A stretch of 64,000 nucleotides of DNA, from NCBI RefSeq assembly GCF_013167455.1, contig NZ_CP038328.1. The stretch is one strand, 5' to 3'. The position numbers were made by a program. Position 1 is the first letter of the stretch, and the number at the start of each line of letters is the position of its first letter. The DNA is from Escherichia coli O157:H7. Its GTDB lineage: Bacteria; Pseudomonadota; Gammaproteobacteria; Enterobacterales; Enterobacteriaceae. Of this stretch, positions 33,001 through 39,000 are shown in pieces.

Positions 33001-36000
33001 ATATCGCCAGCAGAGATGCCCGCATGCGTAAGGGCGCGTTCAATGGCCAGCGCCATCGACGCGGATTTTTCTTCCAACAATGAGGCGTCGAAGTAGGTAT
33101 TGCTGCATGACTTGCCGTAGCCCACCACTTCCGCGAGAACCTCAGCGCCACGCGCCACAGCCAACTGCGGATCTTCCAGCAGCAGCATGCAAGCCCCTTC
33201 GCCCGGAACATAACCTTGCGGATCTTTACCGTAAATCTGATAGTCGCTCGCCTCAGCCGTCATGTGGATCTTTTGTGTCACCGCATCCATATACAGCGAC
33301 ATCGACGGGAAGTACTCATCCGCGCCGCCAACCAATACCTGCGGTTGCAGGTTCTGCCGGACGATTTCATAACCGTAGGTCAGCGCGCCCAGCGCCGAGT
33401 TTTCCCCTGTCGCAAGCGTAGTGGTATACCCTTTGATCCCTTCAGAGATCCCGCAGAACGTTGGGATCGCATTCATCAGCGAGCCAGGAAATTCCGATGT
33501 ACGTACTTTGCGTGGATCGGGTTTCAGACTTTGCAGATATTTGTAGGTGGTTTCCTGCGGGCCGCGGGACATCCCCATGATCATGCCCAACTCATCGCCG
33601 TCGCGTTTGATTTTACGCTTCGCCTGTTCCAGCGCTTCGGTGAGTGCGATCAGGGCAAACGTGCCGCCACGGGTCGCTTTACGCTGATCGAAACGACGCA
33701 GGTGTTTACGCGGCTCCAGCCCGGAAACCTGGAACGTTTTAAAGTTGCTTTCCGTTTCCGGAAGCGTAGCTTCGCTGAAGCTGTACTCTTCATCAAACAG
33801 CTCGGCAAACTGGTTTGATTCATCCAGCACGGCCAGCAGCTCTTTGGCTTCTTCCAGTGTATCGTCCGGGAAGGTTACGCTACCCAGTTCAACGTGGTGG
33901 TCCTGCGCCCAGATGTTTTCCAGAACCTGGTTGAGCGTGTGGCCTATTGCGGATACTGCACCGACGCCCGAGATAGCCACACGCTTCGAATCATAGGTAC
34001 TGACCGGAATGGACGCGGGCTCCATGCTCAGGATCATGCAGCAGTTGTTGCCGCCGAAGGCATAGTTATTCTTCATGAAGATGTTCACTTTGCGATCGCG
34101 AAACTCATTCGGCACATAGTCCAGATCGCAATTCGGGCGTGCATGGCTGAAATTCAGCGTCGGCAGTACGCGGTTATCCGGAAGCGTTGCCAGACAGGCA
34201 ATCAGTTCCACAATCCCCGCTGCGCCAATGTTGTGGCCAAAGTAAGATTTGGTGGAGCTCACCAGCAGTTTATCGTGGTTAGCGAAGACCTTTTTCATTG
34301 CCAGCGTTTCAATACGGTCATTGGCTTCGGTACCCGTACCGTGCGCGTTGACGTAATCGATTTGCTCCGGGGTTACGCCCGCATTTGCCATTGCCTTGTT
34401 CATGACCTGCACCGCTCCGCTGGCACGCGGATCTGGCCCGGTTTCATGGAAAGCATCGCAGGAAGTGGCGTAAGAGAGGATCTCACCATAAATGGTCGCC
34501 CCGCGTGCTACGGCGTGCTCATACTCTTCCAGCACGATAGCGCCAGCGCCTTCACCAATCGACATACCGGACTGACCCGAGAACGGCGTACAAGTGTCTG
34601 GATGCATGACATTCAGTGCGTAGAATCCGGCAAAGGTCGGCAGATAGATGGGCTCAGTGCCCACTGCCAGCATGGTTTTGCTTTTACCATTCTGGATGTA
34701 GTCAAAGGCCATCCCCACGGCGTTCGGGCTGGCGGTACACGCGGTCGCCACCAGTTCAACCCCACCCTGTAAGCCCAGCAGCGTTGAAACGCTGGAACAA
34801 CAGGATGAGAATGCGCCGGAAAAGAGTGCTTTACGCAGCGAGAAATCTTCCATGCGCTGTTCGAACAGCGGCAAAAATGCCTCTGTTCCCGCGGACGAAA
34901 CACCGACGATCATGCCTGTTTCTTTGAGGGTGTCACGGCTATCCATCAGGCCGGCCTGACTCAGCGCATCTTTACCCACTTTGTAGGCCCAGAGCGCTGC
35001 GTTATCCAGTGAATCGATAACATCTTCGTTCAGATCGGAGTATTCAATGTCATGCAACACTTCTGCCGCACGCGCATTTTCAAACCATTTTGCAAAGCGT
35101 TCGCTATCCTTAACGCCATTTTTTTTATTTAATAATGCTTCCCGGAAATCCTGAATATTTTCCGCCAGTGAGGACAAAATCCCCAGCCCGGTAATAACAA
35201 CTCTTTTCCTGTTCGTTTTCATGAATAATACCTGGCAATCCCGCCAATTGGGGTTAATTTAAGCCGCGTAAGCTATAGTCACGCGGCGATATTCATTACG
35301 CTGCGCTTTTATTTTTTGACGCGTCGATATAACTGTGCTCAGTTGGGCTAACCAACATGCTCAGGTTATAAATAAACGGCATACATTTTGATTGCGCCGG
35401 AATAATTCCGTGAGCAGTTTGAATTTCGTAGCCGCTGATGTCAGACCAGGCGTAATCCTTTTCCAGCAGGGTCAGGGCAATGAAACGCTGCAACGCTGGG
35501 GAAAAGAGTGCCTTCACGACATAGCCCACGTCTTGACCTTCCACCAGCACGCGATCGCCAGCCTCAATGCCTTCGCATTCTTCCTGTGCGATCATGCCGA
35601 TGAGTTTATTACCGGTATACTCCTGGGATAGCTCTGTCACCGCGTCCTTGCCAATAAAATCATCTTTGTCGTACTGCACCGCCCACTGCATCTGCAACTG
35701 AACCGGATTCACCGCCTGACCTTCCCAGAGGCTGGCATCCCAGCACGGATTTTCGAGGCGTACGATTTTTTGATAATCCAGGCCGCCGGTCTGCATCAGG
35801 TATTTCTCGCCAACGGTTAACAGTTTTTCCCACTGCTCCGCCAGTTTCGCCTGCTCACCGATGGTCATGTACGCATACTCACCGTGTTTACCACAGCGGA
35901 AGAGCAGCAGATCCTCCTCGGTATTCATGTATTCGTAGTAAGGCAGGCCAATCACGTCAAAGCCATGAATTTCAGACATGATCTCCCAGGAGTATGGGCC

Positions 36001-39000
36001 TTCGAGCAGGATTGCCCCCCAGTTGTTTTCCCGCATATCCTGAATTTCAGGCATCGATTGAATATCCAGTTCTTCCGCTTTTTCGAGAATGGTATTCATG
36101 CTGGCGATCAATTCGGCAGCCGAAATATCTTCTGAAAGCAGGTAATAACCGTCAATGCTGCACAGCACATAGACGTCTCCGCGAATGGTGCCCTCTTCAT
36201 TCAACACCAGTGAGTAGATTGCCTGCTCATCACGAATGATGGAGACATCTGCGGAAACCAGCTGGTTGATCAGCGCCCAGGCATCATCGCCCATGACGCT
36301 AACAATAGAGAGGTGAGAATAGTCCACCAGCAGCGCGTTTTCACGAACGGCTTTATATTCGGTCATAGCATCGTGATAAGAAGAAGGTAGGGTACGGTTG
36401 TTATATACCCCCATTACCGCATTATTTTTCAAGTGAAATTCAGCAAGAGATTTCATAAACGTGTCCTGATAATTAATTCTTTAATAAGTAGTTAATCGTT
36501 TTTCTTTTGAATAACGAAGGTGGCCAGACTATTGATACTGCGCATATAGGACGGGTCGTCACTTTCGCTGATCTTGATATCAAATACTTTATCCAGCAGA
36601 ACGACAATTTCCGTTGCATCGACGGAGTCCAGTTTAAAACCATTACCAAACAGCGCAGTATCATCATCAATTTGCGCTTCATCGCGTTGAATATTCAGTC
36701 GCTGGATGATCTCAGTTTTAATGGTCATCAGAACTTCTTTACGCTGTTCAATAGCGTCATTCATGGTAGACATAATATTTACTCTCTTATTGGATTACTT
36801 GGTTTCACGGAAATTGATAATGGTGCCCTGACTAACCAGCTTTTTACCGACGTACGCGGTCACGGAATAGTGTTTAAAGCCACTGGCATCCGAAAAAGCC
36901 AATTTGCTGACAACATCAATAGAATCACCCGGATAGGCGATATCTTTAAATTTCAGGTTCTGAGCCGCCAGCACGCCGCGTACCTGGCTGCGCCGGGTAC
37001 GGATAATCTCCAGCATTTCAGGGCGGTGAATGCGTGCGTGAATATCACGTAACGACTTCAGCTCTTCCTCAAAACGTTCGCGCCAGATATCGCAAATGTC
37101 GGTCAGGAAAGAGAGATACTCGCTGGCCTGGCCGAAGATTTCCGAAATAATCACCCCGGGCATAATCGGATCTTCCGGGAAATGCCCCAGTAGATACGGT
37201 TCGTTATAGGTGACGTGTTTCACGACACTGACAAAGCCATTTTCACCGTATTTATAATCTGCAATTTTATCGACCATCAGCAGCGGCTGACGCCAGCCGC
37301 CCATTTCGAGGAAGATTTTCGAAGGAATCGTGTATTTAGACATAAATCACCGCATGACCAGGCCGCCATCGATAACGATGGTCTGGCCGACAATGTAGCT
37401 GGAGGCAGAGGAACTTAAGAAGACGGTGGTGTTCGCCACTTCTTCACATTTACCCAGACGGCGTAACGGGATGGTACTGGTTACCGCACGGACCACTGCG
37501 CGGGATACTTTTTTCACCATTTTCGATTCAATCATTCCCGGTGCGACCGCGTTGACGCGCACGCCCCAGGGTGCCATTTCTGCTGCCAGCGTGCGGGTGA
37601 AGCCTAGGATCGCCCCTTTTGACGCGCTGTAATTCGCCTGACCGACGCTTGGGATCAGCGCTGCAATAGAGGCAACGTTAATAATGGCGGGATTTTCTGC
37701 CGCACGAAGCAGCATCAGCGCGTCTTTCGTCAGACGGAAAATGCTGAACATGTTGGTTTCGATAACCTGGGTGAAATCCTCATAACTCATCGAGGCAAAC
37801 AGGCTGTCTTTAACGATGCCCGCGTTATTTACCAGCACATCAATCTTGCCAGCTTGGCGCTCTATCTGTTCGCACAATGCGCTCACGCTCTGGGGGCAGG
37901 CAAGATCGCACTGCACAATATGCAGTTTATCGCCTGCAGGATGGCTTGCTTTCAGCGCCGTTAATTGCACGTCGTTGGATTTATAGAGCGCATAAACATC
38001 GCAGTTCTGCTCCAGATATTTTTCGCAAATACCCAGTCCAATATCACCACTGGCTCCTGTCACCAGTACGGTTTTTTCATTTAAATCATTATATTTGTAC
38101 ATATTCATCACATATGTTGAGTTAATAAACGATGACAGTCGCAATGGCGTGGGTACGGCAATGCGAAATACTCAGGGAGTTATTTTGCAACCCCTGCCCG
38201 ATAAAAATTTCTTGTAGTCTTCCGGAAATAACGAAATAAGGTGCTTTGGCTGCATCATGCTTTATTTCAATATCCTGGAAACGTACGCCATCACGAAAAC
38301 CACAACCAATCGCTTTAACTAACGCTTCTTTCGCCGCCCAGAATCCAGAGGCCCGTTCATAATCAGGTTCTGCAGGGTTAATGAGTAAGCGCTCATGAGA
38401 AGTATAAACACGCTCATAAAAAGCCATCTCTCCATTAATAATGGCTTTGGTTATTCTGGCAATTTCAACAATATCTGTCCCTATTCTCATGAGTCTCGTT
38501 ATCCTTTACATTTGGTACGAAAAATTAAAATTTACATTCACCCGATCAATATCTAATGTCGCCGGATACTTTAATGGGGTAGAAACGGAAAAGTTATACT
38601 CAAGACTTTTAATGTTTCCATCAATACCAACTGCCGAGCCCACCAGTGATTCATCGCCATAAGAAGCGTCCTGATACACTTGCCCAAAATCAAGACCGGC
38701 ATAATAATTAGCTTTCATTCCAGGCAAAGGAAATGCCAGCGTATTTTTTATATAAAAACCATCATTCCCTGACAAACCTACGCTATTTTCAAACCCGCGA
38801 ATACTCCAACGATCGCCAACTGTAATTTTATCTTGCAAAGTCAGTTCACGCGGTGCGTACTGGGCAAAAAAAGCGGTATTGTAATATCCATTCTCTATTT
38901 GTCGGGTATAGTTACCCTCAAAATTAAAGATATTGCTTACCGGGCTAACGTCGCCATATTGCATATCCGGCGTTTTTTCACCACCGAACCAGGTTAAAAA

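Follow-up and report, generated by a model that had tools for sequence, protein, structure and literature searches.

Introduction

What does a protein built like a folate-dependent aminomethyltransferase do between the genes for an acyl carrier protein (ACP) and a ketosynthase (KS)? The question is raised by a stretch of 64,000 nucleotides of the Escherichia coli O157:H7 chromosome (assembly GCF_013167455.1, contig NZ_CP038328.1), called the window below, which represents O-island 47 (OI-47) or S-loop 71 (z1528-z1556, ECs1272-1296). Published reviews have covered OI-47 only for GrvA, for its otpAB pair and fimbrial locus and for "fatty-acid synthesis genes", and a plant-colonisation screen found it enriched. 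It has been kept in O157:H7, O55:H7 and O145:H28 (PMC10877973). The gene in question lies at 35296-36456 on the minus strand and encodes a GcvT-like protein of 386 amino acids (WP_000838077.1), here named GcvTL. An earlier note, made from the sequence alone, had recognised a GcvT-family protein at this place and suggested for it either a tailoring role (C1 transfer or demethylation) or a non-catalytic scaffold. The analysis described here favours another answer, to which we give a probability of roughly 55%: GcvTL is a folate-independent enzyme that acts on ACP-tethered intermediates. That the reaction is the release of the finished chain from the ACP is a more tentative proposal.

Gene, Fold and Family Scores

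The open reading frame (ORF) of GcvTL is intact from ATG to stop, occupies exactly 35296-36456 and is identical over all 1161 bases (100%) to that of many O157:H7 genomes; RefSeq names the product "aminomethyltransferase family protein". The gene is present in 381 of 5426 complete E. coli genomes, has full-length orthologues of 60-73% identity in many genera, and shows a ratio of non-synonymous to synonymous substitution rates (dN/dS) of 0.076 against a 97%-identical allele of a freshwater E. coli. For these three reasons it is not a chance ORF, and it is under purifying selection.

Two Pfam domains cover the protein, GCV_T (PF01571) at residues 5-259 (E 9.6e-33) and GCV_T_C (PF08669) at residues 284-361 (E 1.6e-7). 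An AlphaFold2 model built on 77 members of the clade defined below reached a mean predicted local distance difference test (pLDDT) of 96 and a predicted template modelling score (pTM) of 0.93. The best Foldseek matches of this model in the PDB are the T-proteins 1WOS, 1WOO, 1YX2, 1V5V, 3A8I and 1WSR, with template modelling (TM) scores of 0.77-0.86 (0.80-0.86 for 1WOS, 1WOO and 1WSR) and 20-24% identity, and the model can be assigned with confidence to the three-domain GcvT or T-protein fold. At the level of the fold the family assignment of the earlier note is thus borne out; profile and structure searches both keep GcvTL within the GcvT superfamily, and not in an unrelated family. YgfZ and Iba57 ranked below all T-proteins (TM 0.49-0.71), and membership in their family was rejected because they are too distant and GcvTL has no corresponding Cys.

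Membership in the superfamily is not identity with one of its named enzymes. The NCBIfam models for GcvT give 97.6 bits for TIGR00528 (gcvT; cut-off 235.85) and 135.6 bits for NF001567 (cut-off 300), and the identity to the E. coli T-protein (3A8I) is about 22%. The demethylase models give 73.9 bits for DmdA (cut-off 410), 26.7 for LigM (580), 28.7 for DesA (800) and 87.7 for Tdm (1100), and the SoxA model is also far below its cut-off. Neither gcvH nor gcvP is annotated at the locus. GcvTL is not a canonical GcvT, as it fails three of four testable features, namely the curated score, the tetrahydrofolate (THF) residues described below and the partnership with gcvH and gcvP.

Genomic Context and Carrier Partner

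In the window, the gene directly upstream of GcvTL, across a gap of 35 bp, encodes an ACP of 93 amino acids (36492-36773, minus strand; NCBIfam ACP models) with Ser50 in the motif LDSVDA. This ACP shows zero non-synonymous changes against a divergent E. coli allele. Downstream lies a gene (32664-35222, minus strand) for an 852-amino-acid fusion of a ketosynthase and a chain-length factor (KS-CLF), in which the FabF-type model of NCBIfam matches two stretches. The placement of GcvTL between ACP and ketosynthase genes, as given in the earlier note, is therefore correct.

The arrangement is widespread. A scan of one genome per species of GTDB with the motif RxGK[HT]GE[FY]xY returned 138 relatives, of which 80 loci were fetched, and context was counted by tblastn with the 16 proteins of the gene block in the window at 85 loci with enough flank. 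A match to the ACP lies directly upstream and on the same strand at 82 of the 85 loci, and a KS-CLF gene stands beside the ACP-GcvTL pair at 80 of them. These loci span Enterobacterales, Pseudomonas, Paraburkholderia, Myxococcota and Planctomycetota. The co-occurrence of the GcvT-like family with KS-CLF fusions, which the earlier note had offered as a check, is thus emphatic and extends over several phyla, and the family occurs in essentially all orthologous clusters that were examined. Nine contexts chosen from metagenomes and genomes, in which the GcvT-like protein is 62% to 27% identical, all have the ACP immediately upstream and either KS-CLF or a ketoreductase (KR) immediately downstream; in a tenth, on a contig with only about 100 bp upstream, a KR gene follows immediately.

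The two proteins have also been joined by nature. Five ACP-GcvTL fusion proteins of 459-477 amino acids were found, in which about 95 N-terminal residues match the window ACP (E 1e-14 to 1e-18) and contain the motif GLDSVDA. One of them (P0250), with PP-binding and GCV_T domains on record in Pfam, precedes genes for a KR, a transacylase (AT) and a FabA-like dehydratase (DH). Its AlphaFold2 model has a pTM of 0.92, against 0.93 for the GcvT-like domain alone; the ACP blocks have a pLDDT of 83-96, and only a linker of about 10 residues is low (pLDDT 57). As a pTM near 0.75 would be expected for an unplaced ACP, the value of 0.92 lends weak support to a defined docking of the ACP. Adjacency and fusion together show that the carrier partner of this clade has changed to an ACP, and we infer that the window ACP is the partner of GcvTL.

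The set of neighbours varies around this core. The full 16-gene order of the window, including otpAB, is found in Enterobacter, Klebsiella, Kosakonia, Mixta, Leclercia, Rahnella, Acinetobacter and Neisseria. Lipid and export genes with an additional short-chain dehydrogenase/reductase (SDR) and no two-partner secretion (TPS) pair occur in Serratia, Erwinia, Paraburkholderia and Pseudomonas alcaligenes, and lipid and export genes with TpsA only in Proteus, Morganella and Providencia. Myxococcota, Planctomycetota and Desulfobacterota have a compact cassette of KS(-CLF), ACP, GcvT-like protein, KR, AT and DH. A 591-amino-acid ORF in the Polyangium cassette was discarded as a spurious high-GC ORF, the real DH gene of this locus (L079) lying at 12797-13315. 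In a distant version of the cluster (GCA_036704275.1, L009, 9575-21143), behind the ACP and GcvT-like genes come three KS-CLF fusions in a row, an SDR and two acyltransferases, and the cluster adjoins genes for a MauG-like di-haem peroxidase and for type II secretion.

The Clade and Its Former Folate Site

The clade to which GcvTL belongs was defined by a signature of Asp or Glu at position 94, Glu or Asp at 109 and Lys or Arg at 190. In a neighbour-joining tree, 79 sequences with this signature and 15 near-variants group as a single clade of 94, and no canonical GcvT falls within it. GcvTL has all of its marks: the motif R-x-G-K-[HT]-G-E-[FY]-x-Y, the Glu at the canonical Asn position, W157 and the tail motif P-F-x-x-N-x-S. 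Conserved positions specific to the clade are L85, E109, W157 (100%), K190, Y196, N236, L254 and R284; position 94 is Asp or Glu in 100% of the members, and Glu193 of the TGE motif does not vary. The C-terminal tail of about 20 residues (P360-F361-x-x-N364-x-S366 ... P371 ... H374-S-Y) is absent from canonical GcvTs. This clade-specific conservation, above all of D94, W157, Y196, S366 and the tail, speaks in favour of a specific site for catalysis or binding. The N-terminal region of T-proteins is required for binding of the H-protein; the canonical residues of this region (H10, F20, P26 and Y29 in Thermotoga maritima) are not conserved in the clade, and in many members about 30 residues are missing from the N-terminus.

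In human GcvT, THF is canonically bound by Met56, Asp101, Tyr197 and Glu204, which are invariant in GcvT, TrmE and DMGO; Arg233 is specific to GcvT, and Asp101 is the catalytic base (PMC9551070). The T. maritima equivalents, counted on a HMMER alignment with 1WOO, are Met51, Asp96, Tyr188, Glu195 and Arg227, and the anchoring motif aligns without gaps (RCGKHGEYAYM in GcvTL, RTGYTGEDGFE in the T. maritima T-protein). GcvTL was then aligned in MAFFT with 133 representatives from a library of 1.84 billion proteins and with 1WOO. At T. maritima positions 51, 95, 96, 100, 112, 188, 195 and 227, the 20 canonical GcvTs of this alignment read M/L-D-D-Y-N-Y-E-R, and GcvTL reads L49-G93-D94-L98-E109-K190-M197-Q229. 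Only the catalytic Asp (D94) is kept among its folate-site residues. The canonical Met has become L49, the Asn E109, the pterin-stacking Tyr K190, the pterin-binding Glu M197 and the folate-tail Arg Q229. The pterin-Glu position is unconstrained across the clade (D in 33%, L in 15%, W in 8%, others in the remainder). Multidomain relatives resembling trimethylamine N-oxide (TMAO) demethylase keep Asp, Tyr and Glu in the same alignment, so these residues are valid markers for folate-dependent cousins. By the alignment, then, the ACP-coupled clade has lost its folate-binding residues, and the folate-dependent C1 transfer or demethylation that the earlier note had envisaged finds no support.

Something else may have moved into the vacated place. 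In three members of the clade (P0142, P0156 and P0196) the charges at positions 109 and 190 are swapped, reading R..E, K..E and H..E, which is the pattern expected for a salt bridge. Positions 109 and 190 flank the pterin in T-proteins, so the covariation suggests an E109-K190 ion pair spanning what was once the pterin slot. A separate GcvT-like subgroup in the alignment (P0162, P0197, P0222 and P0229) retains the Tyr that stacks on the pterin, but Ile replaces the catalytic Asp and Lys or Arg the pterin-Glu; its motif is GYTGEYEY[KR], and it belongs neither to the canonical GcvTs nor to the ACP-coupled clade.

Proposed Function and Alternatives

A T-protein docks a small carrier protein, takes its thiol-ended arm through a tunnel, uses an Asp to activate a nucleophile and displaces the carrier thiol from a carbon, that of the C1 unit. 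By analogy, the window ACP would replace the H-protein as carrier and dock on GcvTL, and its phosphopantetheine arm would use the entry tunnel in place of the lipoyl-lysine arm. This would bring the acyl thioester to the retained general base Asp94, with the Glu109-Lys190 ion pair filling the former pterin slot, and GcvTL would make or break a bond at the carrier thiol. Most plausibly, the ACP thiol would be displaced and the completed acyl chain either hydrolysed off or passed on to an acceptor. No thioesterase, enoyl reductase (ER) or acyltransferase was recognisable with Pfam, NCBIfam and RefSeq among the 16 cluster genes, and no thioesterase or acyltransferase in the minimal six-gene cassette either; cleavage of the thioester is therefore the most economical step to assign. 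The product would be a lipid that is not fully reduced, made by KS-CLF, a second ketosynthase (KS2), KR, DH and FabD, and exported through the ABC transporter of MacB type and the LolA-like protein.

Several points weigh against this proposal. If the Glu109-Lys190 pair is structural, few obvious catalytic residues are left beyond D94, which 10% of the clade replace by Glu. Ser366 never varies, yet His374 is conserved in only 70% of the members. The modelled fusion is weak evidence for docking, as the pTM of two domains joined by a short natural linker says little about a specific interface. Release could also fall to an enzyme encoded elsewhere, or to hyp317, a conserved hypothetical protein of 317 amino acids (30486-31439, minus strand). 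Its gene comes straight after that of KS2 in every proteobacterial form of the cluster; searches of Pfam, up to E<=10, and of NCBIfam gave hyp317 no match, and it is an alternative candidate for a release or transfer step. A substitute for the missing ER was rejected as a function of GcvTL, since its fold has no nucleotide-binding element.

Among the other explanations, the one that fares best is that GcvTL is a non-catalytic partner of the ACP, a scaffold, chaperone or chain-length gate that shields a reactive unsaturated intermediate or gates delivery to KS-CLF. We regard it as rather unlikely, though there are points in its favour: the cofactor site is lost, the Glu109-Lys190 pair may be purely structural, the adjacency to the ACP and the fusion are invariant, and Iba57 and YgfZ are a precedent for a GcvT fold without folate chemistry (PMC9551070). 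Against this stand the catalytic position 94, an acid throughout the clade, the further invariant polar residues S366, N364, Y196 and N236, and the minimal six-gene cassette, in which the GcvT-like protein is the sole candidate for the missing chemical step.

A folate-dependent tailoring enzyme, which would bind THF and add a C1 unit to the ACP-bound chain or demethylate it, is the idea of the earlier note, and it is unlikely. AlphaFold2 and Foldseek agree with high confidence on an intact T-protein fold, the catalytic Asp and Glu193 of the TGE motif are in place, and about one third of the clade has Asp where the pterin-Glu would be. However, the pterin Tyr and Glu, the Asn, the folate-tail Arg and the canonical Met are all replaced in GcvTL, the pterin-Glu position drifts freely over the clade, the charge swaps suggest an ion pair bridging the slot, and the known folate-dependent relatives have kept their Asp, Tyr and Glu; moreover, no folate-related or methyl-donor genes were found in any cluster examined.

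Quite unlikely is a starter-unit enzyme, in which GcvTL would work in the reverse direction of a T-protein to load an unusual primer or to decarboxylate malonyl-ACP in place of FabH or an adenylating enzyme. T-protein chemistry is reversible at the carrier thiol, and neither FabH nor an acyl-ACP ligase nor another priming enzyme is recognisable in the cluster; in addition, the CLF half of the fusion is without the usual active-site residues, and KS2 has Tyr for the second His. No donor-binding site can be proposed for such a reaction, however, and KS2 is itself a candidate priming ketosynthase, which we assume by analogy with ApeR of the aryl-polyene clusters. The present analyses do not separate the loading of a starter from the release of a product.

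That GcvTL is an ordinary glycine-cleavage paralogue hitch-hiking in the island is hardly credible and was rejected, since its annotation name and Pfam domains are outweighed by the scores and identity given above, the marker residues, a locus with no gcvH or gcvP nearby and the ACP/KS linkage conserved across phyla.

Beyond the enzyme itself, the folate-independent, ACP-dependent reading could be carried further. GcvTL may found a new class of enzymes, derived from the T-protein, in which the ACP arm passes through the lipoyl tunnel and chains are released or transferred without folate in a widespread lipid pathway, the product in enterobacteria, E. coli O157:H7 among them, being exported to the surface and functionally tied to OtpA and OtpB. 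This wider picture is speculative, and we hold it at clearly less than even odds.

The Gene Cluster and Its Surroundings

GcvTL is part of a block of 16 tightly spaced genes on the minus strand, which runs from 44026 down to 24680 and is followed by ycdU. The order is otpA, otpB, acpS, KR, DH, ACP, GcvTL, KS-CLF, KS2, hyp317, ABC ATPase, hyp218, MacB-type permease, LolA-like protein, hyp462 and FabD. The surrounding genes form a set like that of a type II fatty acid synthase (FAS) or polyketide synthase (PKS), with a discrete ACP, a KS with CLF-like partner, KR, DH and AT, and no ER. Ahead of the ACP stand an AcpS-type phosphopantetheinyl transferase of 122 amino acids (38122-38490; TIGR00516, 79.8 bits against a cut-off of 59.8), a FabG-type KR of the SDR family (37347-38108; NCBIfam profiles and RefSeq annotation) and a 3-hydroxyacyl-ACP dehydratase of 182 amino acids that resembles FabZ and ApeI (36795-37343; NCBIfam, with FabA/ApeI-like Pfam matches on orthologues).

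In KS-CLF, an internal alignment finds Cys162, His295 and His330 kept in the N-terminal half, which is probably the active ketosynthase; the C-terminal half is without all three triad residues and is chain-length-factor-like. KS2 (31436-32659; 407 amino acids as annotated; NCBIfam, RefSeq and internal alignment) has Cys/His/Tyr in place of the Cys/His/His triad, and is conserved after KS-CLF in proteobacterial clusters. As it is without the His that normally aids malonyl decarboxylation, KS2 may be a priming or non-decarboxylating ketosynthase. The last gene of the cluster, adjoining ycdU, encodes a malonyl-CoA:ACP transacylase of FabD type (24680-25624; NCBIfam and RefSeq). From the assembly genes (KS-CLF, KS2, KR, ApeI-like DH and FabD, with no ER), a partly unsaturated or hydroxylated chain is predicted.

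A putative export module occupies 25635-30475. It comprises an ABC ATPase (29768-30475; RefSeq, with Pfam ABC_tran on orthologues), hyp218 (29128-29784), a permease of MacB/FtsX type (27817-29127; RefSeq, with Pfam MacB_PCD/FtsX on orthologues), a LolA-like "outer membrane lipoprotein-sorting" protein (27020-27808; RefSeq, with TP_0789-like Pfam matches on orthologues) and hyp462 (25635-27023). Both hyp218 and hyp462 are signal-peptide proteins by a signal-like N-terminus read from the sequence. The MacB-type ABC transporter, the LolA-like protein and the signal-peptide proteins suggest that the product is exported to the envelope.

At the other end of the block, transcribed ahead of acpS, is the two-partner secretion pair otpA (40214-44026) and otpB (38506-40125). 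The name otpAB was given to ECs1282-1283, and earlier authors suggested that the pair serves the upstream loc6 fimbriae. In the group of loci with at least 55% identity (L002, L004, L013-L034 and L057), otpAB is co-syntenic with the lipid cluster from acpS to fabD at 23 of 25 loci, including those of Acinetobacter and Neisseria. This conserved synteny points to a functional link of OtpA with the lipid product and not with the neighbouring fimbriae.

The lipid cluster is older than, and independent of, the O157-specific island next to it, because E. coli TB06051, a non-O157 strain from freshwater, carries it but has no integrase-bearing island beside it. This strain has all 16 genes in intact form, and dN/dS is 0-0.3 wherever dS is above zero. 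At this locus (L093, 122-20731) the island lies directly beside tRNA-Ser and ycdU.

In the window, the neighbouring integrative island fills the left part (1-23.3 kb). It carries urease genes, a phosphoethanolamine transferase gene in a stretch of 33% GC (about 4353-5972), a gene with the primase domain of a "TOTE conflict system" (about 12789-15149), TraT, remnants of IS66, IS30 and IS600, YfjI and a tyrosine integrase (22128-23330). A copy of an IS3-family element is present in strain TR01 and absent from the window at about 15.83 kb. The right end (54406-64000) holds the K-12 backbone genes pgaABC and dgcT (ycdT). Here the OI-47 gene with an EAL domain at about 55067-56677 is taken to be vmpA, and the adjoining regulator with a winged helix-turn-helix (wHTH) is presumably grvA. 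These candidates, regulators of biofilm, motility and virulence, adjoin the island with its lipid, TPS and fimbrial genes.

Significance

If the proposed function is true, a fold regarded as that of a folate-dependent C1 transferase has been recruited to lipid or polyketide assembly as an ACP-dependent enzyme, and the toolbox of type II PKS and FAS gains a new catalytic or offloading component. The label "aminomethyltransferase family protein" on members of the clade, which were found in no fewer than 138 species genomes and numerous metagenome clusters, would then mislead metabolic reconstruction. The clade is a testable handle on the lipid half of OI-47, which is unstudied, and it also bears on OtpA, whose conserved synteny speaks for a tie with the lipid cluster, as against the fimbriae next door. 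A full-text search of the literature, with most subscription journals outside its reach, found no description of a GcvT-like clade in ACP/KS clusters; a paper on the sponge swf cluster, retrieved for "aminomethyltransferase + ketosynthase", was set aside as it concerns unrelated flanking genes. The clade, its coupling and fusion to an ACP and the loss of its folate site appear to be new here, the generic annotation and the island having been known before.

Comparison With Known Systems

The nearest known system is the GcvT T-protein (EC 2.1.2.10; 1WOO, 3A8I, 1WSV). GcvTL shares with it the fold, both Pfam domains and the catalytic Asp, and is likewise paired with a small carrier that bears a long swinging arm ending in a thiol. 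The identity is about 22-24%, and the scores are far below the family cut-offs. GcvTL also differs in that other residues stand for the Tyr, Glu, Asn and Arg contacts to folate, conservation of the canonical N-terminal residues is lost, a conserved tail of about 20 amino acids (PF..N.S...P..HSY) is present that GcvT does not have, and its gene is partnered by that of an ACP, within a KS/KR/DH cluster, and not by gcvH or gcvP.

YgfZ and Iba57, which act in Fe-S protein maturation without folate, are a precedent for a GcvT fold that has given up the canonical THF pocket yet kept the Asp, and they require an invariant functional Cys (PMC9551070). GcvTL has no Cys at the corresponding motif, which reads KDDFIGKD, and stands in an entirely different genomic context. 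The YgfZ motif at this site is K-G-C-Y-x-G-Q-E.

The folate-dependent demethylases and C-terminal domains of the family, including DmdA, LigM/DesA, TMAO demethylase and sarcosine oxidase alpha/DMGDH, belong to the same superfamily as GcvTL, to which they show weak NCBIfam and fold matches. However, GcvTL scores 5-40 times below the curated cut-offs, does not keep the Asp/Tyr/Glu set, and has no methylated substrate or oxidase partner in its cluster. A demethylase of DmdA, LigM or Tdm type was rejected on the scores and on the lost Asp/Tyr/Glu set.

The cluster as a whole resembles the type II PKS/FAS-like clusters for aryl polyenes (Ape) of Gram-negative bacteria. The window cluster departs from them in that KS and CLF are fused, export is of the MacB-type ABC kind, a GcvT-like protein is a core member, and the two-partner secretion pair otpAB is co-syntenic in enterobacteria; it is also without the aryl-starter ligase, methyltransferase, thioesterase and glycosyl- or acyltransferase of the Ape clusters. 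What the two have in common is a discrete ACP, a KS with a CLF-like partner, an additional KS, a FabG-type KR, an ApeI-like DH (by a weak Pfam match on orthologues), the lack of an ER and a LolA-like export component. By analogy, this shared architecture suggests that the product of the OI-47 cluster is an outer-membrane lipid.

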